Positions 2,598 through 59,974 of a DNA stretch of 64,000 nucleotides are shown in pieces. The stretch is taken from positions 128,001 to 192,000 of the forward strand of contig JADFZL010000003.1 of the NCBI GenBank assembly GCA_015232575.1, given 5' to 3'. How positions within the stretch are numbered: position 1 is the first letter of the stretch; each line of letters begins with the position of its first letter. A program made the translations under genes and the position numbers. Source of the stretch: Candidatus Rifleibacteriota bacterium. GTDB taxonomy: Bacteria > Muiribacteriota > Ozemobacteria > Ozemobacterales > Ozemobacteraceae. The notes beneath the pieces are model-generated. The model was not told the DNA's origin, did not search any database, and saw nothing but the letters and a program-made list of their open reading frames with translations.

Positions 2598-5432
2598 ATG
2601 ATGAGATCTCTTTTCACAGGTGTTTCAGGCCTTAAGCAGCACCAGATTCGAATGGATGTGCTTGGAAACAATATAGCAAACGTTAACACACTGGCATTTA
2701 AAAAAGGTCGAGCTTTGTTTCAGGATCTTATGTCACAGACAGTGAGACATTCACAGCAATCAATGGGAAATATCGGTGGAACGAATCCTCAACAGATAGG
2801 ACTTGGAGTAAGGCTTGGCGCAATCGACACCCTCATGGATCAGGGCGCAATTGAAGGAACTGGTAAAAGTACTGACCTTGCTATTGAAGGTAACGGCTTT
2901 TTCGTAATAAAAAACGGATATGGCACCTACTCGTATACCCGTGATGGAAACCTTTCAGTTAACCCGAACTATGATTTAGTTGGAAGTAATACTGGTTTTA
3001 AAATGCAGGGTTGGCTTGCAACTCAGGATCAGGCGACAGGTGAACTCTCAATCAAACAGAATGCTGTAAATCCTTATGATTTGAATCTTACCAAATATCT
3101 GAAAAAAATGGCTCATAAGACCACAAATATCTCTTATGCCTCAAATCTTGACAGCTCTTCTGCTGAACGCGATGTAAAAATGGGCATGGAAAAGTTGGTT
3201 TTCAAAGATACCACCGGGGAATTTCAGAATCTCCAGGTTAAATTCAAAAAAATCGATGCACAGCATTGGGTCTGGAGTGCCACTGACGATACTGAAGGAA
3301 ACGTGGCAAACGGAAGCATTACCACAGATGCCGAAGGCAAAGTTATTGATACAACCGTTGAACCGATGGGTATTGGTGCAACAGTAGGAAAGCCTTACTT
3401 TACTTACGATCCTGATGGAACACCACTTCCGGCAACAGCAACAACTCTCATGAACAGCATGGGAAACACGGGTGATGGTTTTGCATCTGGAATTCAGGTC
3501 GATGGAACTGAGATCAAAGATGAAACAATAAAAGTAGTTTTTGACGGTGGTGATGCTGATCACGCAAATTCGTACCGTGTTGTCGGTTCAGAACGTGGAT
3601 TCATTGGTTCTGGCGTCATAGCCGGATCTCCAGCTAAGGCTGATGGCGTGGGAAACAAGCAGTTGGTTCTTGCAAACTGGACACCGGCAGCAACAGCATT
3701 CGATGTAGTTTTTCAGCGGGAAAGATATTCTGGTGATACTACTCCAGAGAACATTACAGCTACAATTCAATTCAATGCAGGACAACTGGTTGATGGAGTT
3801 GCAGAGACTAACAAATCGTTTACAACTTCAGCAATTATTGACAGAATGAATACTTCTTTAAAAGACAATGGTATACCGGCAACTGCATATTACGACTCTG
3901 TTCTTGGACAAATTTCAATATCAACAAATGCAACCGGAAGTAACCGCACCCTTCAGGTCTTAAATAGATCAGGACAGATTTCTGACCTGGGATTTACCCA
4001 GGATATTACAACTCAGGGAACTGGCATCTCTGCACCTGAGGCATGGGCTGAACTTCCAAATGAATTGAGTTCAAACCCATTTATCAGTTTCAATCCAACG
4101 TTTTCCTTCACAATTACCGACAAAGATGGAAGATCAGCTGCAGTAACATTTGATGCATCTGTTGGCGGCGTTGTTCAGACATACAATAAGAGTGATGTTC
4201 TGTCAAAAATTAATACTGCTCTGAGAAGTAACGATGTCAAGATTTCTGCTGAATTAATTGATTCCAACAATGATACTGAACCAGATCGCCTTGTACTTGT
4301 TGGGACCGACAAAGGTGCCGGAGAAAAAATTATTATATCAGGCGATCAGGCTACATTGCTTGCAAAACTTGGATTCAGGCCTAACACTGCTGCTGGTACA
4401 ACATTCCAGGCATATACCGGAACTCCAGGCGTTGCATCATTCAGTCAGGGCGGAGTTGACTTTACATTAACAGAAGGCAGTATACCCTGGAAGCCAAATG
4501 ATTCAATGGAAATGACCACAACCGCACAGAAGGGACAGGCTGAATCGGTTAACGTTTATGTTCCGACAGTCGATCAGGACACTCTTAATTTCAAAACTAC
4601 TGTTAATACACCACTTGGCCCTGAAACATTCACTATTACTGGTGCTGTCGAAAGAGGGGCAATTCATGACACAAGTATCAGAGTTTTTGATACACTTGGA
4701 AACGATCATGAGCTGGTCACTTCCTGGGAACATACTAATACTGAAACTAAAGAATGGGCTTATAAAATCACCTATTCTGAAGATGATCCCGAAATTACTG
4801 CCTGGCTCAAAGATCCTGCAAATGGTGTTGTTGATCCCGAAGATCCGACTGCAGATGATCTTGAACGTGCAAATGATGCATTGATTACCGAACGAAAAGG
4901 TACAATTTATTTTGGTACAAACGGAAAGATAGATCTTGGAAAATCAAATATTCCTGATATCCAATTTACTCCAAAGGGAAGCGATAAAATAAGTGTTTCT
5001 CTTGATATGGCACTTGCTACCCAGTATAGTTCAGCCTTTACAACCGCTGCCAGAGAGCAGGATGGTTATGAAATGGGAATGCTTGAGTCTGTAAGTTTTG
5101 AATCAGACGGAACAATCAGAGGTATTTATTCAAACGGACAAAAGCATCCAATCGGAAGAGTCGCACTTGCAACCTTTCAGAATTCATCGGGACTTGAAAA
5201 AACCGGAAAAAATCTTTACAATTCCTCTCCCAACTCCGGAACTCCTCTTATTGGTCAGGCGGGCTCTGGCGAACGCGGAACAGTGGTTCCTTCATCTCTC
5301 GAAATGAGCAATGTCGATATCGCGGAAGAATTCACGAACCTTATCATTACCCAGAGAGCATTCCAGGCTAACTCCAGAATTATTACCACATCAGACGAAA
5401 TTCTCCAGGAACTTGTAAACCTGAAACGTTAA
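2598..5432 (+). CDS. flgE: flagellar hook protein FlgE, giant variant (~944 aa)
   Basis: N-term MMRSLFTGVSGLKQHQIRMDVLGNNIANVNT and C-term NVDIAEEFTNLIITQRAFQANSRIITTSDEILQELVNLKR are canonical FlgE/FlgG rod-hook termini; a ~500-aa central insertion; ORF track start 2574, but MMRS at 2598 fits the family. Confidence 0.85.
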   Translation: MMRSLFTGVSGLKQHQIRMDVLGNNIANVNTLAFKKGRALFQDLMSQTVRHSQQSMGNIGGTNPQQIGLGVRLGAIDTLMDQGAIEGTGKSTDLAIEGNGFFVIKNGYGTYSYTRDGNLSVNPNYDLVGSNTGFKMQGWLATQDQATGELSIKQNAVNPYDLNLTKYLKKMAHKTTNISYASNLDSSSAERDVKMGMEKLVFKDTTGEFQNLQVKFKKIDAQHWVWSATDDTEGNVANGSITTDAEGKVIDTTVEPMGIGATVGKPYFTYDPDGTPLPATATTLMNSMGNTGDGFASGIQVDGTEIKDETIKVVFDGGDADHANSYRVVGSERGFIGSGVIAGSPAKADGVGNKQLVLANWTPAATAFDVVFQRERYSGDTTPENITATIQFNAGQLVDGVAETNKSFTTSAIIDRMNTSLKDNGIPATAYYDSVLGQISISTNATGSNRTLQVLNRSGQISDLGFTQDITTQGTGISAPEAWAELPNELSSNPFISFNPTFSFTITDKDGRSAAVTFDASVGGVVQTYNKSDVLSKINTALRSNDVKISAELIDSNNDTEPDRLVLVGTDKGAGEKIIISGDQATLLAKLGFRPNTAAGTTFQAYTGTPGVASFSQGGVDFTLTEGSIPWKPNDSMEMTTTAQKGQAESVNVYVPTVDQDTLNFKTTVNTPLGPETFTITGAVERGAIHDTSIRVFDTLGNDHELVTSWEHTNTETKEWAYKITYSEDDPEITAWLKDPANGVVDPEDPTADDLERANDALITERKGTIYFGTNGKIDLGKSNIPDIQFTPKGSDKISVSLDMALATQYSSAFTTAAREQDGYEMGMLESVSFESDGTIRGIYSNGQKHPIGRVALATFQNSSGLEKTGKNLYNSSPNSGTPLIGQAGSGERGTVVPSSLEMSNVDIAEEFTNLIITQRAFQANSRIITTSDEILQELVNLKR

Positions 5433-5748: not shown

Positions 5749-5931
5749 TTATTTGAATGTTCCAACTTTTTTGCTGTCGTGAAGATTTCTCACATTCGTT
5801 CGAGATGACATAGAATAGTCACTGGTGTGGATCAGTTTTTCTCTTTCTTTTTCCATCTCTTTTTTCTCAGAGTCTCCGCGTTTCAGCGTGAGGCTTCTCT
5901 TCTTTTCTTTCTCATCGAATGCCGTTAACAA
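5749..5931 (-). CDS. hypothetical small K/E-rich protein (60 aa), immediately downstream of the response regulator
   Basis: ORF only; highly charged low-complexity sequence; 6-nt gap to the upstream gene. Confidence 0.2.
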   Translation of the reverse strand: MLTAFDEKEKKRSLTLKRGDSEKKEMEKEREKLIHTSDYSMSSRTNVRNLHDSKKVGTFK

Positions 5932-9575: not shown

Positions 9576-10499
9576 TCAATTTTTAAGTAGGTTTTTAATT
9601 CTTTCTGGCGGCCATGCTATTTCATCAACACGCATTATATTAGAAATATTAATAGACAATGGCTTTCCATTAAAGAGAATACCTATTGAATCACTGGCTA
9701 TCTTAACAGGATCCTCTATTGATTTGAACGACTCAGCAACTTTTCCAGAAATTTTGATTTTGTTGTTCGTATGCATTATTGCAGTAATTGATTCATCTTC
9801 AAATGGAATTTTTCCATTGACAAAAAGTGTTTTGTCTTTTATTTGCATTAAATCATTTTCAACCGCACAAACTCTCTCTATATTATAATTCCAAATAACT
9901 ATGCTTCCGGGTTTTAGATCATTTTTTGCAGGATTATGCGTGATTAATATGGTATCGTAAGGTTGTATCAGCGGTGAATAATAATCAGCAAATATTCTCT
10001 CTGCACGACGGTTGCCGGTACCGAGGATTGTCAATATGTGCAGCTGAAAAAAAATTACCGTTACAAGCATTGCCGCAAATATAGGATAACTGATGAGGGA
10101 AAAAGCGCCTGCTTTCTTTAACGGCTGAGTATAGACATCAAAATATATAAAAAAGAGAAAGATTGCTGCGCCAATAAAAATATATTGGCTGAAAGGTGAA
10201 TATATATAATAATACCCATAAAATGCTGTAAATGCTGTAACTACGAGCGCTGACGCACCTTTAACCTTCTGGCCGAGCACAAGGTGTCCAAGTCCGGGGC
10301 ATAGAAAAGATAAAAATAGCACTTGCAGTGCTGTATTTCTTAAAGTATCGGGTATTTTGGATGTGACGGTATTAGAAGATAGTTTTTGAACGAAATTCTG
10401 CCACTTCAGCGAAATATTCGAAATAAAATTCCTATCCTTCTTTCGAGGCGGCTCAAAATCCATTACATCACTGTTTTTAGTGTTGCGAAAACCACACAA
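9576..10499 (-). CDS. membrane protein with C-terminal signal-peptidase-I-like (S26) domain; catalytic Lys position apparently Glu
   Basis: ~5 predicted TM helices, then YSPLIQPYDTILI (cf. SMxPTLxxGD) and NIERVCAVENDLMQIKDKTLFVNGK (cf. YIKRVIGLPGDTVEIKDG.LYINGK) and a C-terminal WPP; TTG start per the ORF track, with an internal ATG 12 codons in. Confidence 0.3.
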   Translation of the reverse strand: MCGFRNTKNSDVMDFEPPRKKDRNFISNISLKWQNFVQKLSSNTVTSKIPDTLRNTALQVLFLSFLCPGLGHLVLGQKVKGASALVVTAFTAFYGYYYIYSPFSQYIFIGAAIFLFFIYFDVYTQPLKKAGAFSLISYPIFAAMLVTVIFFQLHILTILGTGNRRAERIFADYYSPLIQPYDTILITHNPAKNDLKPGSIVIWNYNIERVCAVENDLMQIKDKTLFVNGKIPFEDESITAIMHTNNKIKISGKVAESFKSIEDPVKIASDSIGILFNGKPLSINISNIMRVDEIAWPPERIKNLLKN

Positions 10500-10730
10500 C
10501 GGGCATAACAGTGTGTCTGAACGAATTACATTACCGCATTTTGTACAATTAATACTTGTTCGCCACCTTTCTTCACCGGATGTATTAAAACAAGGTCATT
10601 TTTTAATTTAATGGTATAGGAATTTTCATTTTAGTTATGCGTGCTTCCTAAAATCATAATATGAATTCAAACTGTCTTGTAACGATTTCAGATTCATTGT
10701 TTTCCAGGGTGCATTACCGTATTTTATGCT

Positions 10731-10796
10731 GTCATTTCGACCGAAGGTAGAAATCTCGTCTTTTCTATTTGATCTCTCCCTTCGGTCGAGATGACA
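10731..10796. repeat. palindromic intergenic repeat, family 1, copy A (~66 bp imperfect hairpin)
   Basis: gtcatttcgaccgaaggtagaaatctcg...gatctctcccttcggtcgagatgaca; related copies at 33155-33218, 45515-45579 and 57497-57545. Confidence 0.8.
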
Positions 10797-11935: not shown

Positions 11936-12013
11936 ACTTTTTCACCTGCCATTCGATCTATAACATTCATATCCTGATCAAAAAATCCAAATCCAAAATC
12001 ACAAATCTTTTGA

Positions 12014-12129
12014 CACTGTAGCAACGTTACTGAAGAAAAGATATATCTCACGCAGAGATGCAGAGGCACAGAGAAAAGCAGAGGGAAAATCGTGTTATTT
12101 TTATATCTGCTTAGCAACATTGCTACAAT
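12014..12129. mobile_element. MITE-like element, family 3, copy 1 (terminal inverted repeats CACTGTAGCAACGTTACTGA / TAGCAACATTGCTACA)
   Basis: shares termini and the internal ATATCTCACGCAGAGA core with 59562-59654; no coding capacity. Confidence 0.65.
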
Positions 12130-12210
12130 CTCAATCTCTTATCCCTTATCTTACAATCTTAAATCTTACAATCCAAAATCTTACAATCCAAAATCTCTTA
12201 ATCTTGAAGC
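12130..12210. repeat. short tandem repeat (ATCTTACAATCC, period ~15, 3-4 units)
   Basis: atcttacaatcttaa / atcttacaatccaaa / atcttacaatccaaa read directly. Confidence 0.6.
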
Positions 12211-17467: not shown

Positions 17468-17700
17468 GGCAGAGAGCACAAAATGCTCGACTGCAGGGAG
17501 TGATAGAGTTGTCCTATTGTTTATTCATCTGATAGAACTTGAGGGGAGAGCACAAAGTCCTCGACCACGGGGAGTGAGACGGATATACTATTGCTTATAT
17601 GTCCGATAGCACTTCAGCGGAGAGCACAAAGTGCTCGACCGCGGGGAGTGAGACGGTCGAACTTGTTCGACCGGCGAGAGGGGGCGCGTGCCCCCTCTCT
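17468..17700. repeat. family 2 repeat: three tandem 74-nt units, each with a GAGCACAAAGTGCTC hairpin, followed by two perfect GC hairpins (CCGGTCGAACTTGTTCGACCGG; GAGAGGGGGCGCGTGCCCCCTCTC); ends 20 nt before the fmdB start
   Basis: units start at 17470, 17544 and 17618; a second copy (one unit plus hairpins) lies at 40160-40250 upstream of pncB. Confidence 0.8.
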
Positions 17701-17720
17701 AAAAAGCAGGGGGTCAGAAA

Positions 17721-17987
17721 ATGCCTTTTTATTCATATCGTGCAAAAAACGTTGAACAATCTTGCCAAAATTGTGCAGAGGAGTTCGATTGCTTTCAGAA
17801 AATTAATGAAATGCCGGTTGAAACATGTCCGGAGTGTGGAAATCAAGTTGTGAGAATTATGCATGCAACTCCAACCGTTAAAGACAGTTCAGAAAAGAAA
17901 ACTTTGTCAGATGATAACCTGAAAAAACACGGGTTCAAAAAATTTGTAAATCGTGGACATGGCAAGGGTTATGACGAGGTTGTCTGA
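17721..17987 (+). CDS. FmdB-family zinc-ribbon protein
   Basis: MPFYSYRAKN..CQNC....CPECG matches the FmdB/TIGR02605 pattern (MPIYEYRC..CGHxFE...........CPxCG). Confidence 0.6.
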   Translation: MPFYSYRAKNVEQSCQNCAEEFDCFQKINEMPVETCPECGNQVVRIMHATPTVKDSSEKKTLSDDNLKKHGFKKFVNRGHGKGYDEVV

Positions 17988-18479: not shown

Positions 18480-18573
18480 CGAAAACCACAAAACCCCGAT
18501 CAGAAAAATGATTCTGACCGGGAATATAGTGAATAATACCAATTCTATATAGCTCGTTCATTCAGTTTTCTGT

Positions 18574-18596
18574 AGGGGCTTGATTTATCAAGCCCT
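18574..18596. repeat. family 4 hairpin repeat (AGGGCTTGATAAATCAAGCCCCT) between convergent genes; second copy at 36960-36985
   Basis: near-identical 23-25 nt hairpin in two places. Confidence 0.6.
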
Positions 18597-33055: not shown

Positions 33056-33154
33056 AATATATTAACCCTCACCCTTGCCCTTCGCATGCGTTAACTTAAA
33101 GTAGGCAAAATCTTAAATAATGAGACAAACTTTTTATTAACTTTGTGGTAGATT

Positions 33155-33218
33155 GTCATCTCGAGCGAATGTGAGATATCTCAATAATGCGAGCTTTCTT
33201 CCTTCGGTCGAAATGACA
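33155..33218. repeat. palindromic intergenic repeat, family 1, copy B
   Basis: gtcatctcgagcgaatgtgagatatctc...gagctttcttccttcggtcgaaatgaca. Confidence 0.8.
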
Positions 33219-33264
33219 AAATCGGAATTCTGATGCTTAAGTTAACGCACATGTCAGTAAATTT

Positions 33265-36890: not shown

Positions 36891-37074
36891 AAAATTCCTC
36901 CGGGCATTTTAGTATTTCAGGCATTTATATTAATCAAAATTTATTTACGAATCAGCTTCGGGCTCGATAAATCAAGCCCCTACAAAAGCATGATGAACAA
37001 ATTTTGCAGAATTGGTAGTATATTATCATTTTTCGACAAATTTGCAACCATATAAAGGTTTATTTTATTATTTT

Positions 37075-40159: not shown

Positions 40160-40250
40160 TCAAGCAGCGTAGAGCGCAAGGTGCTCGATCGCAGGGAGTA
40201 AGCCGGTCGAACTTGTTCGACCGGCGAGAGGGGGTGCGTGCCCTCTCTCC
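40160..40250. repeat. family 2 repeat, copy 2 (one unit plus two GC hairpins), ending 20 nt before the pncB start
   Basis: agagcgcaaggtgctcgatcgcagggagtaagccggtcgaacttgttcgaccggcgagagggggtgcgtgccctctctc; cf. 17618-17700. Confidence 0.8.
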
Positions 40251-40270
40251 AAAAAATCAGGAGCTGAAAT

Positions 40271-41713
40271 ATGAATCTTGCAATGTTAACTGATTTGTAC
40301 CAATTTTCCATGTTGTATGGTTATCATTTGAGTGGAACTGATCGCAAAATGGCAAATTTTGATGTCTTTTTCCGGCGGCATCCGTTTAATGGCGGATTTG
40401 CCGTTTTTGCTGGATTAGCCGATCTTCTTGCAGCGCTTCAGAATTTTCATTTTTCTGATTCAGATCTTGAATATATTAAAAGTCTGGGGTTGAAAGATGC
40501 TGGCTTTATCGAGAAGTTAAAGAATTTTCATTTTTCAGGTGATATCTTTTCCTTTCCAGAAGGAAGCATCTGTTTTCCTGGCGAGCCGCTTATGAGATTT
40601 TCAGGACCATTGTTTGAAGTTCAGTTGCTTGAAACGCTTGTTCTGAACATTATAAATTTTCAAACACTGATAGCCACTAAATCAGCCCGCATTTTTGAGG
40701 CATCAGGTAAAAGCGCAGTTGTTGAATTTGGATTGCGCCGTTCGCATGGTCCGGATGGTGGACTATCAGCTTCAAGAGCAGCATATATCGGTGGATGTGT
40801 AGCAACTTCAAATGTTCTTGCCGGACAGAAATATGGAATTCCTGTCAAAGGAACAATGGCGCATTCCTGGATTATGTCATTTCCGAATGAATTAATTTCA
40901 TTCAGAGAGTATGCAAAAGCTTTTCCAGATTCATCTGTTTTTCTGGTTGACACATACAACACATTAGCTGATGGTGTTCCAAACGCAATAACCGTAGGAC
41001 TGGAAATGAAAAAACACGGTCACACGCTCAAAGGAATCAGACTTGATTCAGGCGATCTTGCATATTTAAGTGTTGAAGCCAGAAAAATGCTTGATGAAGC
41101 AGGATTGACTGAAACAAAAATTCTTGCAAGTAACGATCTTGATGAGTGGATAGTTGATGCGTTAAGGCATGAAGGTGCAAAAATTGATATATGGGGAATC
41201 GGCACAAAACTGGTAACTGGTTCACCTGATTCCGCGCTGGGTGGAGTTTTTAAATTGTCGGCAATTGAGAATGAAGATGGAGTGATTATTCCAAAAATAA
41301 AAGTTTCCCAGAATGAAGAAAAAACGACTAATCCCGGATTGAAGAGCGTATATCGTGTTTACGACACGTCCGGCATGATGACTGGAGATATAATCTGCCT
41401 GGCAGATGAGATTCCAACAGATGAATCTTTTAAACTTGCCATACATCCTCTTAATGAATATAAATTTTTCCGTGTAACTCCTGAATATTCAATTAAGGCG
41501 ATGATGAAAAAGGTTTTTTCAAATGGAGTAATCGTTGATGGAACTGAAAAACTTTCCGATATAAGGAATAGAGTGTTAGGAGAGCTGGAGAAACTTCATT
41601 CAAGTCACAAGCGACTCGTTAATCCGCATTATTATAAAGTTTCACTTTCTCAGAAATTATTCAGATTACGAAAGTCCCTGCTTGAAAAGGGATTAAATAT
41701 CCAAAAAGAATAA
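40271..41713 (+). CDS. pncB: nicotinate phosphoribosyltransferase
   Basis: MNLAMLTDLYQFSMLYGY N-terminus and overall NAPRTase pattern. Confidence 0.85.
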   Translation: MNLAMLTDLYQFSMLYGYHLSGTDRKMANFDVFFRRHPFNGGFAVFAGLADLLAALQNFHFSDSDLEYIKSLGLKDAGFIEKLKNFHFSGDIFSFPEGSICFPGEPLMRFSGPLFEVQLLETLVLNIINFQTLIATKSARIFEASGKSAVVEFGLRRSHGPDGGLSASRAAYIGGCVATSNVLAGQKYGIPVKGTMAHSWIMSFPNELISFREYAKAFPDSSVFLVDTYNTLADGVPNAITVGLEMKKHGHTLKGIRLDSGDLAYLSVEARKMLDEAGLTETKILASNDLDEWIVDALRHEGAKIDIWGIGTKLVTGSPDSALGGVFKLSAIENEDGVIIPKIKVSQNEEKTTNPGLKSVYRVYDTSGMMTGDIICLADEIPTDESFKLAIHPLNEYKFFRVTPEYSIKAMMKKVFSNGVIVDGTEKLSDIRNRVLGELEKLHSSHKRLVNPHYYKVSLSQKLFRLRKSLLEKGLNIQKE

Positions 41714-45333: not shown

Positions 45334-45514
45334 ATTTTGTTAAAGCCAAGCTTATATCGTATAATCGTATCTACTCAATTTTTACTCAATATTGTATTAG
45401 AAATCTCTTTTTTTGTCCAATGCAAAAACTTTTTTTTATCGTCAATGCCAATGAGCTTAGTACGCAAAACCTTATATAAGGGGGCATATTTGCGTGTTAA
45501 CTATTATGTGAGCT

Positions 45515-45579
45515 GTCATCTCGAACGAATGTGAGAGATCTCCGCAAGTGCGAGATTTCTCCCTTCGGTCGAAATGACA
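45515..45579. repeat. palindromic intergenic repeat, family 1, copy C
   Basis: gtcatctcgaacgaatgtgagagatctc...gagatttctcccttcggtcgaaatgaca. Confidence 0.8.
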
Positions 45580-53623: not shown

Positions 53624-54409
53624 CTAAACGGAAATGCGCTTGCCTGAAGGGCCGCGGTGAGGGAGGCCCCATTCTGTAACACCTGCCATGGCTTCTTCAT
53701 TCAGAATCGGACCTTCAATGCATAACCGGATACCATTTCCATCAAGACAGCATTGTCCGCAGATTCCTATGCCGCATTTCATGTATCTTTCAAATGATAA
53801 TTGAACCGGAATTTGATGTTCTTTTGCAATTTGTCTGACAGCAAGAAGCATTGGTTCGGGCCCTGAGCCATATATTACTGAAGGTTTCTTTTGGAGAAGC
53901 ATCTCTTTAAGAGGCTCTGTTGCGATTCCTGATTTTCCGTAGGAACCGTCTTGAGTCATCGGATACCAGAATTCCTTTTCATTCATTTCATTTCGGAATG
54001 GGATATCATCTCGAGTTTTTGCTGCGGCGATCCATTTGAAATTAAAATTATTCTTTTTCAGGATTTGTGCAAGATATTTCAGCGGCGCGTTTCCACAGCC
54101 ACCTCCGACGATTATTGAGTTATCAGAGAGCTGAAATGTATTTCCGAACGGGCCGCGAACTCCAAGCCAGTCATTCTTTTTTAGCTGCATCATAGCATTT
54201 GTGAATTTCCCGATTGCTTTTACTGTGATTTCAATTCCAGATGCGTTTGTACCAGATATTGCAAAAGGTTTTTCATCGACTCCGGGAATCCATATCATTA
54301 CAAATTGTCCGGCATTTGCCTGTAATTGTACCGGAAGGAAAAAACTTTTCAGCGTGTCTGAATGTTGATAAATGTCAGAAATTTTCCAGGTCTGCATTGT
54401 TTCAGGCAT
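53624..54409 (-). CDS. pyrK: dihydroorotate dehydrogenase electron-transfer subunit
   Basis: FAD/NAD-binding ferredoxin-reductase fold; C-terminal CGIGICGQCC 2Fe-2S motif; overlaps pyrD. Confidence 0.8.
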   Translation of the reverse strand: MPETMQTWKISDIYQHSDTLKSFFLPVQLQANAGQFVMIWIPGVDEKPFAISGTNASGIEITVKAIGKFTNAMMQLKKNDWLGVRGPFGNTFQLSDNSIIVGGGCGNAPLKYLAQILKKNNFNFKWIAAAKTRDDIPFRNEMNEKEFWYPMTQDGSYGKSGIATEPLKEMLLQKKPSVIYGSGPEPMLLAVRQIAKEHQIPVQLSFERYMKCGIGICGQCCLDGNGIRLCIEGPILNEEAMAGVTEWGLPHRGPSGKRISV

Positions 54410-55334
54410 GGGCTTTCCCCTTTAAATCAAAGATATTTGAAAGTTCATTGGTAGTGGCATATTCTGCGAGTTTTTTGTTAATCTGGGAAAAAATATCAAG
54501 GCCGTTTTTATGAATTCCTGAACCTATTCCGATTGCTGAAGCACCAGCAAGAATAAGCTGAATTGCATCCTCAGATGATGATACTCCGCCTGTGGCTATG
54601 ATCGGAATTTTTACTGCAGAAAAGATTTCATACACGGCTTTAACGGTAAGAGGAAAGATTGATGGACCGCTGACTCCGCCGAATTTGTTTGAGAGAACAG
54701 GATTTCTGGAATTTATGTCAATGAGCATTCCGGGACCAACTGTGTTTATTGCTGTAATTGCGTCGGCTCCGGAAGCTTCGCAGCATTTTGCCGTTTCGCT
54801 CAGAGAGGCGCATTGAAGCGAAAGTTTCACAGAGACTGGAATTTTTCCTGATTTGGATTTTACTGTTTTTGTGATCTTTTCAAGTTCTTTGATATCAGAA
54901 ACAAATGGGCGGCCGAATTCTGATGCGACATTCGGGCATGAGACATTCAGTTCAATAAGTGCAATACCAGAAGGTTTCTGCGAGATTTTTTCAGCAACAA
55001 TTCCAAATTCTTCGACGGTTTTTCCGAAGATAGATGCAAAAATAGAAGTCCTGGGTGCAACTGAAGTGAATTCAGTAATTTCTTTCAACATTTCTTCGTA
55101 TCCTGGGTTAGAGAGGCCAACGGCGTTCAGGTAACCGTGTTCATACGGAATAATTGCAGGGCAGGGGTGACCTTTTCTTTCTTCGATGCTGAAAGACTTT
55201 GTTGTTACGGCTCCGGCACCGGATTCAGAGACTCTCCGCATGCTGGATGCGGAAAGTCCCATAATTCCAGAGGCAAGAACCAGCGGCGATGACATTGTAA
55301 AACCGCACAGTGATGCAGAAATTTTCTCAGCCAT
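54402..55334 (-). CDS. pyrD: dihydroorotate dehydrogenase (class 1B catalytic subunit)
   Basis: TIM-barrel DHOD motifs (GLSNPG; NTVGPGM; IIATGGV). Confidence 0.9.
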   Translation of the reverse strand: MAEKISASLCGFTMSSPLVLASGIMGLSASSMRRVSESGAGAVTTKSFSIEERKGHPCPAIIPYEHGYLNAVGLSNPGYEEMLKEITEFTSVAPRTSIFASIFGKTVEEFGIVAEKISQKPSGIALIELNVSCPNVASEFGRPFVSDIKELEKITKTVKSKSGKIPVSVKLSLQCASLSETAKCCEASGADAITAINTVGPGMLIDINSRNPVLSNKFGGVSGPSIFPLTVKAVYEIFSAVKIPIIATGGVSSSEDAIQLILAGASAIGIGSGIHKNGLDIFSQINKKLAEYATTNELSNIFDLKGKAHA

Positions 55335-55336
55335 TT

Positions 55337-55822
55337 TTATGGAAGTGCTGCCTCAAGCTCAGCGCGGGAAAAATGTCTTTCGCAGTAATTGCAGCCATAA
55401 GTAAGTGGTTCTCTTTCGAGAAGGTGAAAACATGTGTTGATGCTTTTTTCAAAGTTTGTAATACATGATGGATTAGGACACTTCAGCACCTTGTCAACAA
55501 GTTCCGGAACATCAAGAACGATCTTTTTTTCAACTGCAAAATTTTCAATTCTTTTAATTGTGACACCAGGACAAATAAGCGAAAGATGTTGAAGAAAACT
55601 TGGCGGCAACTCTTTTATCTGAAATTTAAGCAGATCTTTCCGACCAAGCCGCTTGCTGAGGTAATTCATTCCAAGTGAAATAATAATAGTCGATAATTCT
55701 TCATGACGGTGGGCAATTTCAAGAATTTTGACTCCATAACCCGATGGAATATGGTCGATGACGATTCCATTTTCAATTTTAGGAATTAGAAGTACATTTG
55801 CGTTATTATGATTATCAGTCAT
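55337..55822 (-). CDS. pyrI: aspartate carbamoyltransferase regulatory subunit
   Basis: IENGIVIDHIP; C-terminal zinc domain CPNPSC...CNYCE. Confidence 0.85.
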   Translation of the reverse strand: MTDNHNNANVLLIPKIENGIVIDHIPSGYGVKILEIAHRHEELSTIIISLGMNYLSKRLGRKDLLKFQIKELPPSFLQHLSLICPGVTIKRIENFAVEKKIVLDVPELVDKVLKCPNPSCITNFEKSINTCFHLLEREPLTYGCNYCERHFSRAELEAALP

Positions 55823-55823
55823 G

Positions 55824-56738
55824 TTAAGCTCCTATGTGATGAAGAAGTAGTGCCTGTCGCATGGTGAGACCGTATCCGACCTGTGGAAAATATCCGGCAT
55901 AAGGTGTTGAATCGATTTCAGGTGAAATTTCATTGACTCGAGGCAGTGGATGCAGAATTTTCAAAGTGCTTTTTGCACCTTTAAGGATGTTGTGATCAAT
56001 TTTGTATGAATCTTTTACTTTTTCATACTCCATGGGGTCTGGAAATCTTTCACGCTGAATTCTTGTCATGTAAACTATATCACACTCAATAATTGCCTGT
56101 TTGAGATCAACTGTTTCAACGCATTTGAAAGATTTTGTGTTGGAAGCTGTTTTAACGTATTCTGGCATTTTTAACGTATCTGGAGATACAAACATGAATT
56201 CGATTCCATCAAATTTCGAAAGGGCATGTACAAGTGAATGTACCGTTCTGGAGTATTTGAGATCACCAGCCAGAGCTATTTTAAGCCCTGAAATCCGTCC
56301 AAAAAATCTGCTGATAGTGTACAGGTCGAGAAGAGTCTGCGTTGGATGCTGGTTAGCTCCGTCTCCGGCATTAATAACCGGAAGGCGGCTCACTTCGGCC
56401 GAAAGTCTTGCTGCGCCTTCCCTCGGATGTCTTATTACGATTGCGTCGCAATACTGTTCGACAGTTTTGATTGTGTCAGCGAGAGATTCTCCCTTTGCTG
56501 TGGATGTTGAGACAACGTCAGAAAAACCAATGACGTTTCCGCCAAGTCTCAGCATTGCAGCTTCAAAGCTTAATCTAGTTCTTGTACTTGGTTCGAAAAA
56601 TAGTACTCCGAGAATTTTTCCTGCCAGCATTTTCGCTTTATCTTTGAGCGGAATCTGCTCTATTTTTTCAGCATAATTAAGGTAGTCGTTAATGTTTTTA
56701 ATACTCAAATCATCAATTGAAATAAGGTCTTTTTTCAT
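55824..56738 (-). CDS. pyrB: aspartate carbamoyltransferase catalytic subunit
   Basis: FFEPSTRTRLSFE and HPTQ motifs. Confidence 0.9.
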   Translation of the reverse strand: MKKDLISIDDLSIKNINDYLNYAEKIEQIPLKDKAKMLAGKILGVLFFEPSTRTRLSFEAAMLRLGGNVIGFSDVVSTSTAKGESLADTIKTVEQYCDAIVIRHPREGAARLSAEVSRLPVINAGDGANQHPTQTLLDLYTISRFFGRISGLKIALAGDLKYSRTVHSLVHALSKFDGIEFMFVSPDTLKMPEYVKTASNTKSFKCVETVDLKQAIIECDIVYMTRIQRERFPDPMEYEKVKDSYKIDHNILKGAKSTLKILHPLPRVNEISPEIDSTPYAGYFPQVGYGLTMRQALLLHHIGA

Positions 56739-57430
56739 AGTATTTCCTGAAGCTCCCTTTTGGTTTTTTCAAGCCATTGTACAGGTTCTTTGCTTTCGAG
56801 AAGGCTTCTTCCAACGATCAGATAATGTTTTTTGATAGATGGAAAATCAGCAGGATTTCCGCCCTGTTTTCCGAAGCCGGGTGAATAGAATTCCGAATTG
56901 GAAGGAAATTGAACCTTTTTGATAAGGTTTTCAACTATTTCACCTTTGGTAAGTGGCACTACGAAAGAAGTTACACCGCTTTCAACTGCTGACGAATACA
57001 TTTTTTCAACAGCCGAATCTTTAATGAATCCGCCTTCAGATTCAAGATATGATTTATGCGTCATTACACCGCCAACTATTACTTTCAATGACTCAGCCTT
57101 TATTGCTTCAATCCATGATTTTTCAGTGAGCGGGCCGGCTTGCGGAAAAATGATAACTTCGTTAATTCCGGATTTTGACATAACGCTTGCATAGAGTTCT
57201 CCAGTGTCTGGAATATCTGTTCCTGCTTTCTGGTGATCGTAAATAACAGGCTTATCTGAGTATTTTCGTATAATTTCAACAGCTTTTGGCAGCCCGTAAG
57301 TTAAGCCAAGTGAAAATCCAAGTTTATAACCATAAATGAATGGATGTTTTCCTGTTTCGCGGATGAGTACTTCTAATTTTGAAATGTCCTGAAAGTCTAG
57401 TGCCGGAATGATCATTACCTGTTTTTTCAT
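56735..57430 (-). CDS. pyrF: orotidine 5'-phosphate decarboxylase
   Basis: IPALDF...GYKLGF...YDHQKAGTDIPDTG (Asp-x-Lys-x-x-Asp-type active-site region); operon context. Confidence 0.7.
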   Translation of the reverse strand: MKKQVMIIPALDFQDISKLEVLIRETGKHPFIYGYKLGFSLGLTYGLPKAVEIIRKYSDKPVIYDHQKAGTDIPDTGELYASVMSKSGINEVIIFPQAGPLTEKSWIEAIKAESLKVIVGGVMTHKSYLESEGGFIKDSAVEKMYSSAVESGVTSFVVPLTKGEIVENLIKKVQFPSNSEFYSPGFGKQGGNPADFPSIKKHYLIVGRSLLESKEPVQWLEKTKRELQEIL

Positions 57431-57496
57431 GTTACTTTCTCCTGATATATTTTCGGGTTTGAGCTGGTCGTGATATGTTCAATGTATTGATTCATG

Positions 57497-57545
57497 TTAT
57501 TTCGACCGAAGGGAGAAATCTGGCATTTTCTACGTCGAGATGACA
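57497..57545. repeat. palindromic intergenic repeat, family 1, copy D (internally deleted) between pyrE and pyrF
   Basis: gttatttcgaccgaagggagaaatctgg...gtcgagatgaca; closest to copy A. Confidence 0.7.
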
Positions 57546-57589
57546 ACGAATCATGATTTCTACAACAAAAAGACGGTTCCACCCAAATC

Positions 57590-58195
57590 TTAATTGTTAA
57601 TAAACCGTCTGATGATTTCAGATCTTGGATCAGACTTTGATTCAAGATATTCAATTATTGAATGAACGGTTATCAGAGACTTGTACTCAAAATTAATCTT
57701 AGTATTTCTGGCGGTGCGGTCAACTATGACAAGATTTCTGATCTTTGTACAACCAAAAGTTTTATTCAGGTGATTAATCGCTTCTTCTTTTGTTTTTCCG
57801 TTTGTCATTACATCGTCTATTATGACTATTTCATCGTTTTTTGTGGGAAGTTTTCCGATGTAATTTCCGCCTTCACCGTGATCTTTTGATTCTTTGCGGT
57901 CATACAGAACTGGAATGTCTTTCTGAAAAAGGTTCCAGAGTGAGATTGATGCAGATGTGGCAAGAGTTATTCCTTTATAGGCGGGTCCGAATAAAATTGT
58001 TGCATCGGGAAAAAAGTCTAATAAAGCATTTGCAAGAAAGTTTCCCATTGTGGAAGATTCCTTACCGGTTTTAATCTGTCCAAGGTCAATAAAAAAAGGG
58101 GAGGAAACACCAGATTTCAGTGTAAACTCCCCAAATTTTAGAGCGCCAGAATCAATCAGCAGTTGTACAACTTCACAGGGATTGACAGTTTTCAT
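57590..58195 (-). CDS. pyrE: orotate phosphoribosyltransferase
   Basis: FGEFTLKSGVSSPFFIDL; PRPP motif VIIDDVMTNGKT. Confidence 0.85.
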   Translation of the reverse strand: MKTVNPCEVVQLLIDSGALKFGEFTLKSGVSSPFFIDLGQIKTGKESSTMGNFLANALLDFFPDATILFGPAYKGITLATSASISLWNLFQKDIPVLYDRKESKDHGEGGNYIGKLPTKNDEIVIIDDVMTNGKTKEEAINHLNKTFGCTKIRNLVIVDRTARNTKINFEYKSLITVHSIIEYLESKSDPRSEIIRRFINN

Positions 58196-59465
58196 AAACC
58201 TCCTTTGAATTGTTGAAATTCAGCCATTTTTCTTTACATAACGAGACTGTTCCGTTTACGATTGCAGTATCAACCTTCCATGGAAACGAAAATTTCTGCC
58301 ATGGGTTATAGCCAGCTTTTGTAACAATAGTTGCGGATTTATCGCCAGGAATGGTTTTCTTGTACAAGACAAGATCAGCAAAATTTCCGATTTTTATACC
58401 ATCGCGATCTTTTATTGAATAATGCTTTGCAGAATTGCTGCATGCAAGTTCAATTAATTTTGATATTCCGATTAATTTTTCTTCGTAAAGCTTTAAAAGA
58501 AGCGATCCGAAAGATTCTATTCCCGGAACTCCGGAAGGTGGGGCAGGGGACTGTTTTTCTTCGGGTGAATGCGGTGCATGGTCGCTTCCTATGAATTGAA
58601 TGCTTCCATCATTGATTGCAGCAAGTAAAGCCAGGCGGTCTGTTTCTTCTCTGATTGGCGGATTCACCTGAAGCATTCCAAAAGATTTCATAACATCATC
58701 TTGTGTAAAGAATAAATAATGGGGCGCAGTTTCAGCAGCAACTGACACGCCTTTCTTTCTCATTTTGCTTAACCAGTCAAGTTCTTCAATGGTCGAAACA
58801 TGCAGAAGAATGATTTCAGGAAGGGGTGATGACGGATTTTTTTCTGAAAAGATTTTTAGTGCATGTTCAATTCTTGAAAGTCCGGAAAGAATTGCTGTTC
58901 GCGGACGTTTTTCGTGGTGGGGGCAATTTTCCTGTGATAAAAAATAATCTTCATCTTCAACATGAAAAGTGAAGCGATTGTAGTTTTCAAAAAGTTCTGC
59001 AAGTTCGTTTGCTGACTTAACGACCTTTGAGCCGCCTGCTGCAGAGAAGAAAATCTTTATTGAAGCATACTTGGCGTTTTTATAATTTCCGGGAAGAACG
59101 TGCAATCCCCAGTTTACCAGTGAGTATTTCTGAAAAAGTTTGTTTTTAATACAGAAAACCTCCCCGTTATTGCAGGGAGGTTTATTATTCGGCATATCCA
59201 GAACGGTAGTAACACCACCGTATAAAGCGGCCCGCGAGCCGTTTTTAATTCCTTCTTTGTAAAACTGACCCGGTTGTCGGAAATGAACATGCGGGTCAAT
59301 GCACCCAGGCATTAGAAGCTTGTCAGAAGCATCAATAGTTGAGGAAAACTGCCAGGAATTATTGACTTCTGGCGAAATGTCAGCGATTCTGCAATTTTTT
59401 ACGAGAATATTCCCGCGAAGAACTGAGTTTGATATATCTAACCAGCTTGCATTCTTAATCAACAT
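58173..59465 (-). CDS. pyrC: dihydroorotase (amidohydrolase family)
   Basis: MPGCIDPHVHFRQPG metal-binding HxH; heads the pyr operon. Confidence 0.7.
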   Translation of the reverse strand: MLIKNASWLDISNSVLRGNILVKNCRIADISPEVNNSWQFSSTIDASDKLLMPGCIDPHVHFRQPGQFYKEGIKNGSRAALYGGVTTVLDMPNNKPPCNNGEVFCIKNKLFQKYSLVNWGLHVLPGNYKNAKYASIKIFFSAAGGSKVVKSANELAELFENYNRFTFHVEDEDYFLSQENCPHHEKRPRTAILSGLSRIEHALKIFSEKNPSSPLPEIILLHVSTIEELDWLSKMRKKGVSVAAETAPHYLFFTQDDVMKSFGMLQVNPPIREETDRLALLAAINDGSIQFIGSDHAPHSPEEKQSPAPPSGVPGIESFGSLLLKLYEEKLIGISKLIELACSNSAKHYSIKDRDGIKIGNFADLVLYKKTIPGDKSATIVTKAGYNPWQKFSFPWKVDTAIVNGTVSLCKEKWLNFNNSKEVYENCQSL

Positions 59466-59561: not shown

Positions 59562-59654
59562 CACTGTAGCAATGTTGCTGAAAAATGAATATATCTCACG
59601 CAGAGACGCTCGTATTTTTTTTAATTGTATCTGCTCAGCAACATTGCTACAGTG
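59562..59654. mobile_element. MITE-like element, family 3, copy 2 (20-bp perfect terminal inverted repeats CACTGTAGCAATGTTGCTGA / TCAGCAACATTGCTACAGTG)
   Basis: read directly; internal AATATATCTCACGCAGAGACGCTCG core shared with 12014-12129. Confidence 0.7.
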
Positions 59655-59974
59655 TCAAAAAAAGTGTTTTAATTTCATATTTTTTAATTGCCATCTTTCT
59701 CAGGCTGAGTATTTATGATTTTGCCGGCAATTACCCATCAGAATTCTTTGAAATATGCATTAATAGAATATTGTTCTTAAAAAACATTTGCGAAAATCAT
59801 TATCTGAAAACCATTTATTTATAATGGTCTTGAGACTATTGGATAATTGTGGTGGTTTTGTCTGCGTAAGTTTCTGACGCTGGTAATTTTCTATTCTGAA
59901 TGTTATTCTTCAGTAAGAACTTTCAAGGATAATATGAATATTTATAAAAGGAACTTGAAGTTAAAGGGCGATAA

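Follow-up and report, generated by a model that had tools for sequence, protein, structure and literature searches.

A TGTC-tagged repetitive extragenic palindromic unit in a Rifleibacteriota genome and in bacteria of at least ten phyla

Repetitive extragenic palindromes (REPs) were sorted in the survey of Di Nocera, De Gregorio and Rocco (2013; BMC Genomics 14:522, PMC3733652) into two superfamilies, whose units carry GTAG or CGTC tags. In that survey, units of the CGTC class have stems of 8–9 bp whose first two positions are A-T residues, loops of 4–5 nucleotides (nt) and a short tail with the consensus CCA, the tag being 'changed to TGTC in many repeats' and also occurring as the variant CCTC. 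Head-to-head dimers, with the tags outside, predominate, and their spacers are variable and often have complementary ends. The survey places these repeats between unidirectional and convergent open reading frames (ORFs) in five phyla, at tens to thousands of copies per genome and with no association to a transposase gene, and equates the family CGTC-1 with Neisseria dRS3 and Rickettsia RPE-6. The literature after this survey yielded nothing further on REPs of the CGTC class. Here, a repeat family of this kind is described from a 64,000-nt stretch of a Candidatus Rifleibacteriota bacterium (assembly GCA_015232575.1, contig JADFZL010000003.1, positions 128,001 to 192,000; hereafter the window), in which an initial annotation, made from the letters alone, had noted four palindromic intergenic copies and termed them REP-like or MITE-like (miniature inverted-repeat transposable element).

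Like REPINs and GTAG-REPs (Nunvar 2010; Bertels & Rainey 2011; Ton-Hoang 2012; Quentin 2018), the window elements consist of two inverted units that form a larger hairpin, each unit being a hairpin with a 4-nt foot; in both, target-site duplications are lacking, singlets look like decayed dimers and clusters of units occur. They differ from the REPIN/RAYT system (RAYT, REP-associated tyrosine transposase) in their tag, TGTC instead of GT[AG]G, and in that no RAYT flanked by these units (a REPtron) was found in the window or in 73 listed loci from other genomes. In the study of Quentin et al. (2018; PMC6006769), subclasses of TnpA-Y1 transposases have no links other than those to GT[AG]G REPs and 'atypical' structures. 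With MITEs such as Correia/NEMIS, Nezha and RPE, the window elements share short length, terminal inverted repeats, a non-coding nature, intergenic placement, multiple copies and transcript hairpins; MITEs, unlike the window elements, have target-site duplications, a recognisable parent insertion sequence (IS) and terminal inverted repeats that are not independent hairpin units.

The four noted copies are all present, each boundary gaining 1–2 nt that take in the T of a TGTC tag, and a fifth site was recovered by repeat finding and mismatch-tolerant searches. The revised spans are 10730–10796 (copy A), 33154–33218 (B), 45514–45579 (C) and 57495–57545 (D), and the additional site E is a solo arm at 5783–5810. 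Direct reading of the sequence confirmed palindromic elements with conserved inverted arms, the full element comprising two inverted arms of 27–28 nt and a variable spacer of 10–13 nt. Arms fall into a triloop and a tetraloop class according to loop length. Copy A has a left arm at 10730–10756 (+ strand; triloop class, ATTTC...GAAAT stem, GGTAG variant), a 13-nt spacer at 10757–10769 (CGTCTTTTCTATT) and a right arm at 10770–10796 (− strand; triloop class, ATCTC...GAGAT stem). In copy B, a tetraloop-class left arm with the core GAGCGAATGTGAG and a degenerate GATAT (33154–33181, +) is separated by 10 nt (33182–33191) from a degenerate right arm of the triloop class (33192–33218, −). The left arm of copy C (45514–45541, +; tetraloop class) matches the consensus exactly, with a score of 49.5 bits, and its right arm (45553–45579, −), beyond an 11-nt spacer (45542–45552), is an exact copy of the major 26-mer TGTCATTTCGACCGAAGGGAGAAATC. 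Copy D retains a triloop-class left arm whose tag is mutated to TGTT (57495–57521, +), followed at 57522–57545 by a spacer remnant and a 13-nt stump of the right arm, CGTCGAGATGACA; it is internally deleted, as had been annotated, having lost about 17 nt that include most of one arm. Copy E lies on the − strand (TGTCATCTCGAACGAATGTGAGAAATCT, tag at 5810; 42 bits, E 6e-8), and its partner arm was not recognisable.

The window thus holds eight full arms and one stump at five sites, and TGTC directly precedes the stem in eight of the nine arms, the exception being copy D. In the 64 kb the 18-mer end motif CCTTCGGTCGARATGACA, with at most 3 mismatches allowed, had eight matches where shuffles predict 0.08, and the 26-nt arm had five where 0.00 are expected, so that a chance origin of the repeats is excluded. 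A covariance model of one arm, run on both strands of the 64 kb with filters off, recovered the eight full arms at E-values from 8e-10 to 6e-3 and the truncated arm of D at 0.85, and revealed no further arm above noise. The two subtypes formerly distinguished, A/D and B/C, reflect mostly opposite orientation, since all five sites align once A and D are reverse-complemented; what stands of the distinction is a real difference in one arm, that with the ATCTC...GAGAT stem, whose core is GACCGAAGGGAG in A and D and GA[A/G]CGAATGTGAG in B, C and E. For copies A–C, long hairpins were predicted, with energies of −23 to −35 kcal/mol and z-scores of −3.7 to −8.5; the value for the whole of copy A (10730–10796) was −35 kcal/mol, and its flanks TATTT/ATAAA lengthen the hairpin. 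On the transcribed strand, the fold predicted for copy D was weak and had lost its stability. Both D and E are decaying.

Species genomes of GTDB were scanned for both arms separated by a gap of 15–45 nt. At least 73 loci were obtained from at least 47 other assemblies of at least 10 bacterial phyla, at a local GC content of 31–73%, and the 77 elements and 154 arms listed from them are the basis of the counts given below. The repeat is thus neither confined to the window nor an assembly artefact. The exact 26-mer was present in 32 of 48 assemblies (those listed plus the window) over a local GC range of 32–71%, and at least five separate loci came from a single assembly of Luteimonas marina. 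The hundreds of copies per genome that the initial annotation deduced from four in 64 kb are an extrapolation. Hosts included Alpha-, Beta- and Gammaproteobacteria (with the isolates L. marina and L. saliphila), 'Deltaproteobacteria'/Thermodesulfobacteriota, Sandaracinaceae, Bacteroidota (with the isolate Botryobacter ruber), Brocadiaceae, Riflebacteria, Syntrophomonadaceae, Nitrospirota, Fibrobacterota, Anaerolineales and Eisenbacteria. An archaeal occurrence (locus L028, from a bin labelled Candidatus Bathyarchaeota) was rejected: genes for MurA, HisG, HisD and an MlaC/HpnM-like protein mark the contig as bacterial, and it is probably a binning error in the Bathyarchaeota metagenome-assembled genome (MAG). 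No arm was found in 80 unrelated RseP control loci from metagenomes (438 kb). BLASTN with the consensus element yielded no copy in the 72,556 plasmids of PLSDB and no arm in the 50,697 phage records of INPHARED, the only two matches, of 26–28 nt, being chance matches to the spacer; in viral contigs of IMG/VR, dimers were absent and solo arms few. Families of GTAG-REPs are known as lineage-specific repeats that co-evolve with their RAYT. The window unit, unlike them, is identical in sequence across phyla, which is somewhat unusual given that a 2025 survey found the similarity of REP motifs across taxa to be generally low.

The unit can be written 5'-TGTC–ATYTC GA NC GAA(N) GN' GA GARAT–CT. It is composed of an unpaired 4-nt tag, a 5-bp stem that opens with A-T and T-A, a tandem of G.A and A.G, two further base pairs, a GAA or GAAN loop of 3–4 nt and a short tail, CT, followed by variable sequence; the stem accordingly has nine stacked positions, seven of them Watson-Crick and two forming the conserved tandem, which was G-A in 147 and A-G in 149 of the 154 listed arms. 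Two pairs vary. Pair 7:24 was T-A in 105 arms, C-G in 37 and otherwise in 12, pair 12:19 was C-G in 116, A-T in 24, G-C in 6, a wobble in 3 and a mismatch in 5, and the states of the two pairs occurred in every combination. Position 7 differs between the two arms of 20 heterodimers; nearly all of these arms kept their internal pair, the pair between the arms being broken, which is not what a duplex terminal inverted repeat predicts. The two length classes were analysed separately with custom parsing because MAFFT placed the single gap of the alignment outside the loop. Among tetraloop-class arms 96.9% of cells were paired, against 89.3 ± 1.4 in shuffles (none of 500 reached 96.9) and 6–66% in slid controls, and 11 cells were changed on both sides, against 3.7 expected. 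The minimum free energy structure predicted by ViennaRNA for a single arm, with DNA or RNA parameters, was exactly the proposed hairpin. In single-stranded DNA, triloops closed as C-GAA-G and tandems of sheared G.A pairs have an unusual stability, as in the d(GCGAAGC) mini-hairpin, which nearest-neighbour models undervalue. The selected unit appears to be the single 27-nt arm with its conserved G.A tandem and GAA loop, rather than the long palindrome.

Compared with the CGTC superfamily, the window unit is alike in its tag, roughly so in a stem that begins with A-T and T-A and extends over 8–9 positions, in a short GAA-containing loop closed by C-G and in its short tail, and again alike in head-to-head dimers, variable spacers that often have complementary ends, intergenic placement downstream of genes, occurrence in several phyla and the absence of a transposase. 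Units of CGTC-1 (CGTCATTCCCGCGAAGGCGGGAAT; CGTC ATTCCCGC GAAG GCGGGAAT) align with it position for position and co-occur with it in some host loci, the stems being ATTCCCGC/GCGGGAAT in CGTC-1 and ATTTCGACC/GGGAGAAAT in the window family. The spread of the latter over at least 10 phyla is also wider than the published one and falls for the most part outside Alphaproteobacteria. Its translated signature, VISTEGRNL, does not occur among the CGTC peptides in the available part of Additional file 3 of the survey, and a close relative may be catalogued there. The window repeat is best classed as a new sequence family within the known superfamily of CGTC/TGTC-tagged REPs, and not as a MITE. The elements are probably REPIN-like head-to-head dimers of REP units of this superfamily, with outward tags, whose hairpin would be copied in trans.

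By analogy with GTAG-REPs, the folded single-stranded hairpin and its tag would be recognised by a sequence-specific enzyme acting in trans, and the unit would be copied as a monomer or a dimer without target duplication, as is thought for GTAG-REPs handled by RAYT/TnpA(REP). A dimer inside a transcription unit would, according to the folding models, form in the mRNA a hairpin of 23–35 kcal/mol, and such a hairpin might shield the 3' end that lies upstream or alter how the downstream gene is expressed, effects established for E. coli REPs; copies no longer maintained would decay, as D and E. As for the nature of the enzyme, copying by a horizontally transferred, sequence-specific enzyme other than a RAYT, or by a conserved host enzyme that processes single-stranded DNA, is a tentative proposal that we hold to be rather doubtful. 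Either enzyme would explain how an identical 26-nt unit persists at 32–71% GC in at least 10 phyla.

Several observations weigh against a REP dimer copied in trans. No mobilising enzyme was found: the approximately 0.5 Mb of listed loci and the window contained no shared neighbouring protein and no Y1/HUH match, and for this reason we infer transposition by analogy only. No clean pair of filled and empty sites that would define the junctions was obtained. The covariation was not significant on unique triloop-class arms, a set that consists of one dominant sequence and singly mutated copies; overall it rests on two variable pairs, and related copies are not independent observations. Nearest-neighbour models give the hairpin of a single arm a weak energy, from −2 to −8 kcal/mol with a z-score of about −0.5, which is no better than that of shuffles, and because of this weak predicted energy the case for the arm hairpin rests on the covariation. 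Furthermore, the scan pattern fixed 14 of the 18 first positions of the arm, four being degenerate, so that conservation of the fixed positions across genomes arises partly by construction, and agreement of the tag in other genomes is not independent, since the pattern fixed the tag as well. The fit to the published description of the CGTC class is approximate because the window unit has a G.A/A.G tandem at two positions where the class has Watson-Crick pairs, a loop of 3–4 instead of 4–5 nt and a CT instead of a CCA tail. Finally, no copy is followed by a U-run, which leaves a role as intrinsic terminator unsupported.

The placement of the elements bears both on this interpretation and on a cis-acting role. 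As annotated, the window copies are all intergenic, the gene calls rseP|CvpA-domain and pyrE|pyrF being confirmed, and the five sites all lie between co-directional or convergent genes. Copy A has a TPR gene on one side and an unannotated gene on the other; B is found 46 nt past the rseP stop and 98 nt ahead of the CvpA-domain gene, C, preceded at 45 nt by the stop of an ArsP-type permease gene, is 180 nt ahead of an FmdE-domain gene, and E is 35 nt past the stop of an FlbD-domain gene with convergent neighbours, a stop codon thus being found 35–46 nt upstream of B, C, D and E. Copy D is within the 159-nt gap between pyrE and pyrF, which also holds a fresh Shine-Dalgarno sequence for pyrF and is the sole loose junction of the pyr operon in the window, all others in the ORF list being overlapping or tight. 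PyrE of the window is 100% identical to a protein that NCBI lists for a Candidatus Riflebacteria MAG, encoded on a 558-kb contig. The order pyrC-like, pyrE, pyrF, pyrB, pyrI, pyrD, pyrK-like is common to two Riflebacteria genomes (window 53624–59465; locus L161, 8614–14401); in the related genome, whose PyrE is 64% identical, gene order is kept, pyrE and pyrF overlap by 4 nt and no arm was found in 20.6 kb of the locus. In the scan, 54 of the listed copies could be classified by crude ORF calls; 47 of them lay downstream of one or two genes, in 18 convergent and 29 co-directional settings, and the other 7 were divergent; nine listed elements fell 'inside' ORFs, mostly spurious long ORFs in 70%-GC DNA.

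An orthologous site could be followed in three Luteimonas-like genomes, where a dimer lies about 25 nt past the stop of the same sigma-54-type regulator gene. Both arms were identical in all three (54/54). In L. saliphila the flanking coding DNA was only 85–87% identical and the spacer was different; the other two genomes are 96–97% identical, and their differences at the site are rearrangements, namely an inverted spacer (13/14 matches inverted against 5/14 direct), replacement of the 25-nt upstream flank and two extra partial arms in one genome. These sites are structurally dynamic while the sequence of the arms is held constant, in line with continuing processing that is specific to the sequence, with gene conversion between copies or with selection, and not with inert junk. 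As a separate observation, a head-to-head dimer of the sister family CGTC-1 (CGTCATTCCCGCGAAGGCGGGAA...CCCGCCTTCGCGGGGATGACG) lies downstream of the shared dimer in L. marina (L053) only, being absent from the 96–97% identical MAG (L036); this is a presence/absence polymorphism whose junction is not clean.

That the repeat is solely a host-beneficial cis element, such as a stabiliser of mRNA 3' ends, an intra-operon attenuator or a gyrase/IHF site, spread by recombination with no mobility mechanism of its own, would agree with copies that sit downstream of genes and are depleted in divergent promoter regions, with long predicted hairpins that are stable on the transcribed strand for A–C, and with arms conserved at an orthologous site while the spacer drifts. 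Roles of this sort are documented for E. coli REPs (background in PMC3733652). We nevertheless regard it as unlikely, given the patchy distribution, with no copies in the 438 kb of control loci and none in the related Riflebacteria locus, the occurrence in either orientation relative to transcription, the lack of a U-run and the decay of D and E; an identical 26-mer over 32–71% GC and at least 10 phyla is difficult to account for unless the unit spreads horizontally and is copied in a sequence-specific way.

The initial annotation's palindromic, intergenic, REP-like label was right, and its MITE-like label was not borne out. Target-site duplications did not exceed chance, a direct repeat of at least 2 nt being present in 6 of the 77 listed elements, about the chance number, and searches near the copies, both in the window and in the at least 73 loci, disclosed no cognate TnpA(REP)/Y1 transposase. 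No IS or other long element with these ends was detected in the approximately 0.5 Mb of loci or in the 72,556 plasmids, the 50,697 phage records had no match to an arm, and no distant pairs of arms in the loci bracket a transposase. Searches by tblastn with IS200, IS608 and an E. coli RAYT, which serve as a lead only, gave nothing below E 0.4. When all ORFs in the 73 listed loci were clustered, no neighbour common to the elements emerged; the families that did come up were ABC transporters, Ser/Thr kinases, radical-SAM proteins and GGDEF/EAL proteins, and where ORFs lie between two dimers (L067, L062) they encode a dienelactone-hydrolase-like protein, as read from the translation, and other ordinary proteins. 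A classical MITE, that is, a deletion derivative of a DDE-type IS whose 27-bp terminal inverted repeats with TG...CA ends are bound as duplex by a transposase in trans, would account for two near-perfect 27-bp inverted repeats around a variable interior, for the TG...CA termini and for the recurrence in different phyla of the same heterodimer of a tetraloop-class and a triloop-class arm, as if the dimer travelled whole. Such an origin is improbable in view of the missing duplications and parent elements, of arms that occur alone or as tandems in the same orientation, and of covariation within arms, which a duplex inverted repeat does not require.

Head-to-head dimers made up four of the five window sites and all 77 matches of the scan, whose pattern itself selected for dimers, and spacers in the listed dimers measured roughly 5–30 nt. 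Solo arms were seen as copy E and in the viral contig L158, and partial arms in the same orientation beside a dimer in L005, L009 and L036. A clustered form of the TGTC REP unit was observed in the MAG 'bacterium H5_UNCL2' (L062, 172–520), in which three left arms with a 23-nt period precede seven right arms with a period of about 35 nt, all carrying the GCA loop variant (CCGCAGG). In L158, an IMG/VR contig of a putative phage, the solo arms (4180–4250 and 9757–9860) lie in intergenic gaps, each adjoining a second type of hairpin, TTATCCCGGGAGCGAAGCGACGCGGGATAA, with the same inner GA-GC-GAA-GC-GA core, and there may be a wider group of hairpins built on this core. About one fifth of dimers lie inside lineage-specific outer inverted repeats: 17 of the 77 listed had a flank stem of at least 6 bp, and the longest perfect flank stem averaged 4.83, mismatched controls giving 3.84 (p = 3e-6). 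In the window, flank extensions of 5–7 bp are present at copies A, C and D, and copy B is nested in the outer inverted repeat CATGCGTTAACTTAA / TTAAGTTAACGCACATG. A composite of about 100 nt, a dimer inside an outer inverted repeat of 15–18 bp (CATRCG(C)TTA(A)CTTAAG), is common to copy B (window 33090–33256) and two copies in another Riflebacteria MAG (L003, 5340–5470; L031, 1290–1420), and represents either a larger unit amplifying in the Riflebacteria lineage or a dimer inserting into another palindrome family.

Such nesting above chance, and the inverted spacer, replaced flank and extra partial arms in the 96–97% identical Luteimonas genomes, would also suit arms that are targets of recombination or integration, att-like sites for site-specific recombinases or IS110-type elements, their multiplicity reflecting repeated use. 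Neisseria dRS3 is reported to be a target of this type. The close similarity of the window units to CGTC-1, equated with dRS3 in the 2013 survey, points the same way. This explanation is very improbable, since no recombinase, prophage or IS was found beside any of the 77 listed elements, and since being a target leaves the multiplication to the same sequence in many phyla unexplained.

A structured non-coding RNA gene or ribozyme, to which the strong predicted hairpins and G.U-compatible stem variants might point, is scarcely credible for a near-perfect palindrome that occurs in both orientations, as solo arms and in tandem arrays, is least conserved in its apical part and matches no Rfam family, searches of the window at the gathering threshold and of five loci at an E-value threshold having returned only generic miRNA-hairpin models far below threshold. 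Other candidate identities were also tried and rejected: a hammerhead or other ribozyme core, raised by the GA...GA motif (no CUGANGA box, no Rfam match), an integron attC site (no R''/R' GTTRRRY boxes) and Tn402/Tn7-like ends, raised by TGTCATTT (no target-site duplication, no transposon). A text search of the literature for the arm sequences returned nothing relevant.

Other repeats share the window with the TGTC family. An element of 91 nt, 89% identical between 17472–17705 and 40165–40255, ends 15–20 nt before an ATG at both places, preceding a zinc-ribbon ORF at 17721 and a nicotinate phosphoribosyltransferase gene at 40271. It contains the three hairpins GAGAGCACAAAGTGCTC, GGTCGAACTTGTTCGACC and GAGAGGGGGCGCGTGCCCCCTCTC, had no Rfam match and is a candidate cis-regulatory leader or riboswitch; two more tandem modules of 74 nt at 17472–17619 open with its motif. 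At 18568–18595 and 36960–36987 there are two copies, in opposite orientations, of a GTAG-tagged REP-like hairpin, GTAGGGGCTTGATTTATCAAGCCC(CTAC), and the genome seems to host a GTAG-type REP family beside the TGTC type. A third repeat family (12001–12134 and 59562–59667) has inverted arms CACTGTAGCAACGTTRCTGA / TCAGCAACATTGCTACAGTG around a conserved core, ATATATCTCACGCAGAGAYGC; beside its first copy, at 12141–12200, there is a 15-nt tandem repeat of about four units, ATCYWAAATCTTACA.

In itself the finding in the window is an ordinary one, intergenic gaps that hold non-coding repeats of a selfish or regulatory nature. In practical terms, such repeats yield spurious ORFs in MAG annotations, with peptides such as VISTEGRNL, SFRPKGEI and RFLPSVEMT. 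REPs are among the commonest bacterial non-coding repeats, and the 2013 survey found no dedicated transposase for their CGTC-tagged half. The identity of a CGTC-type unit in different phyla and at different base compositions is an argument for its specific recognition and for its horizontal spread, and a unit so invariant, wide and patchy in its distribution could serve as a handle for finding, through phylogenetic profiling, the machinery that mobilises CGTC REPs.

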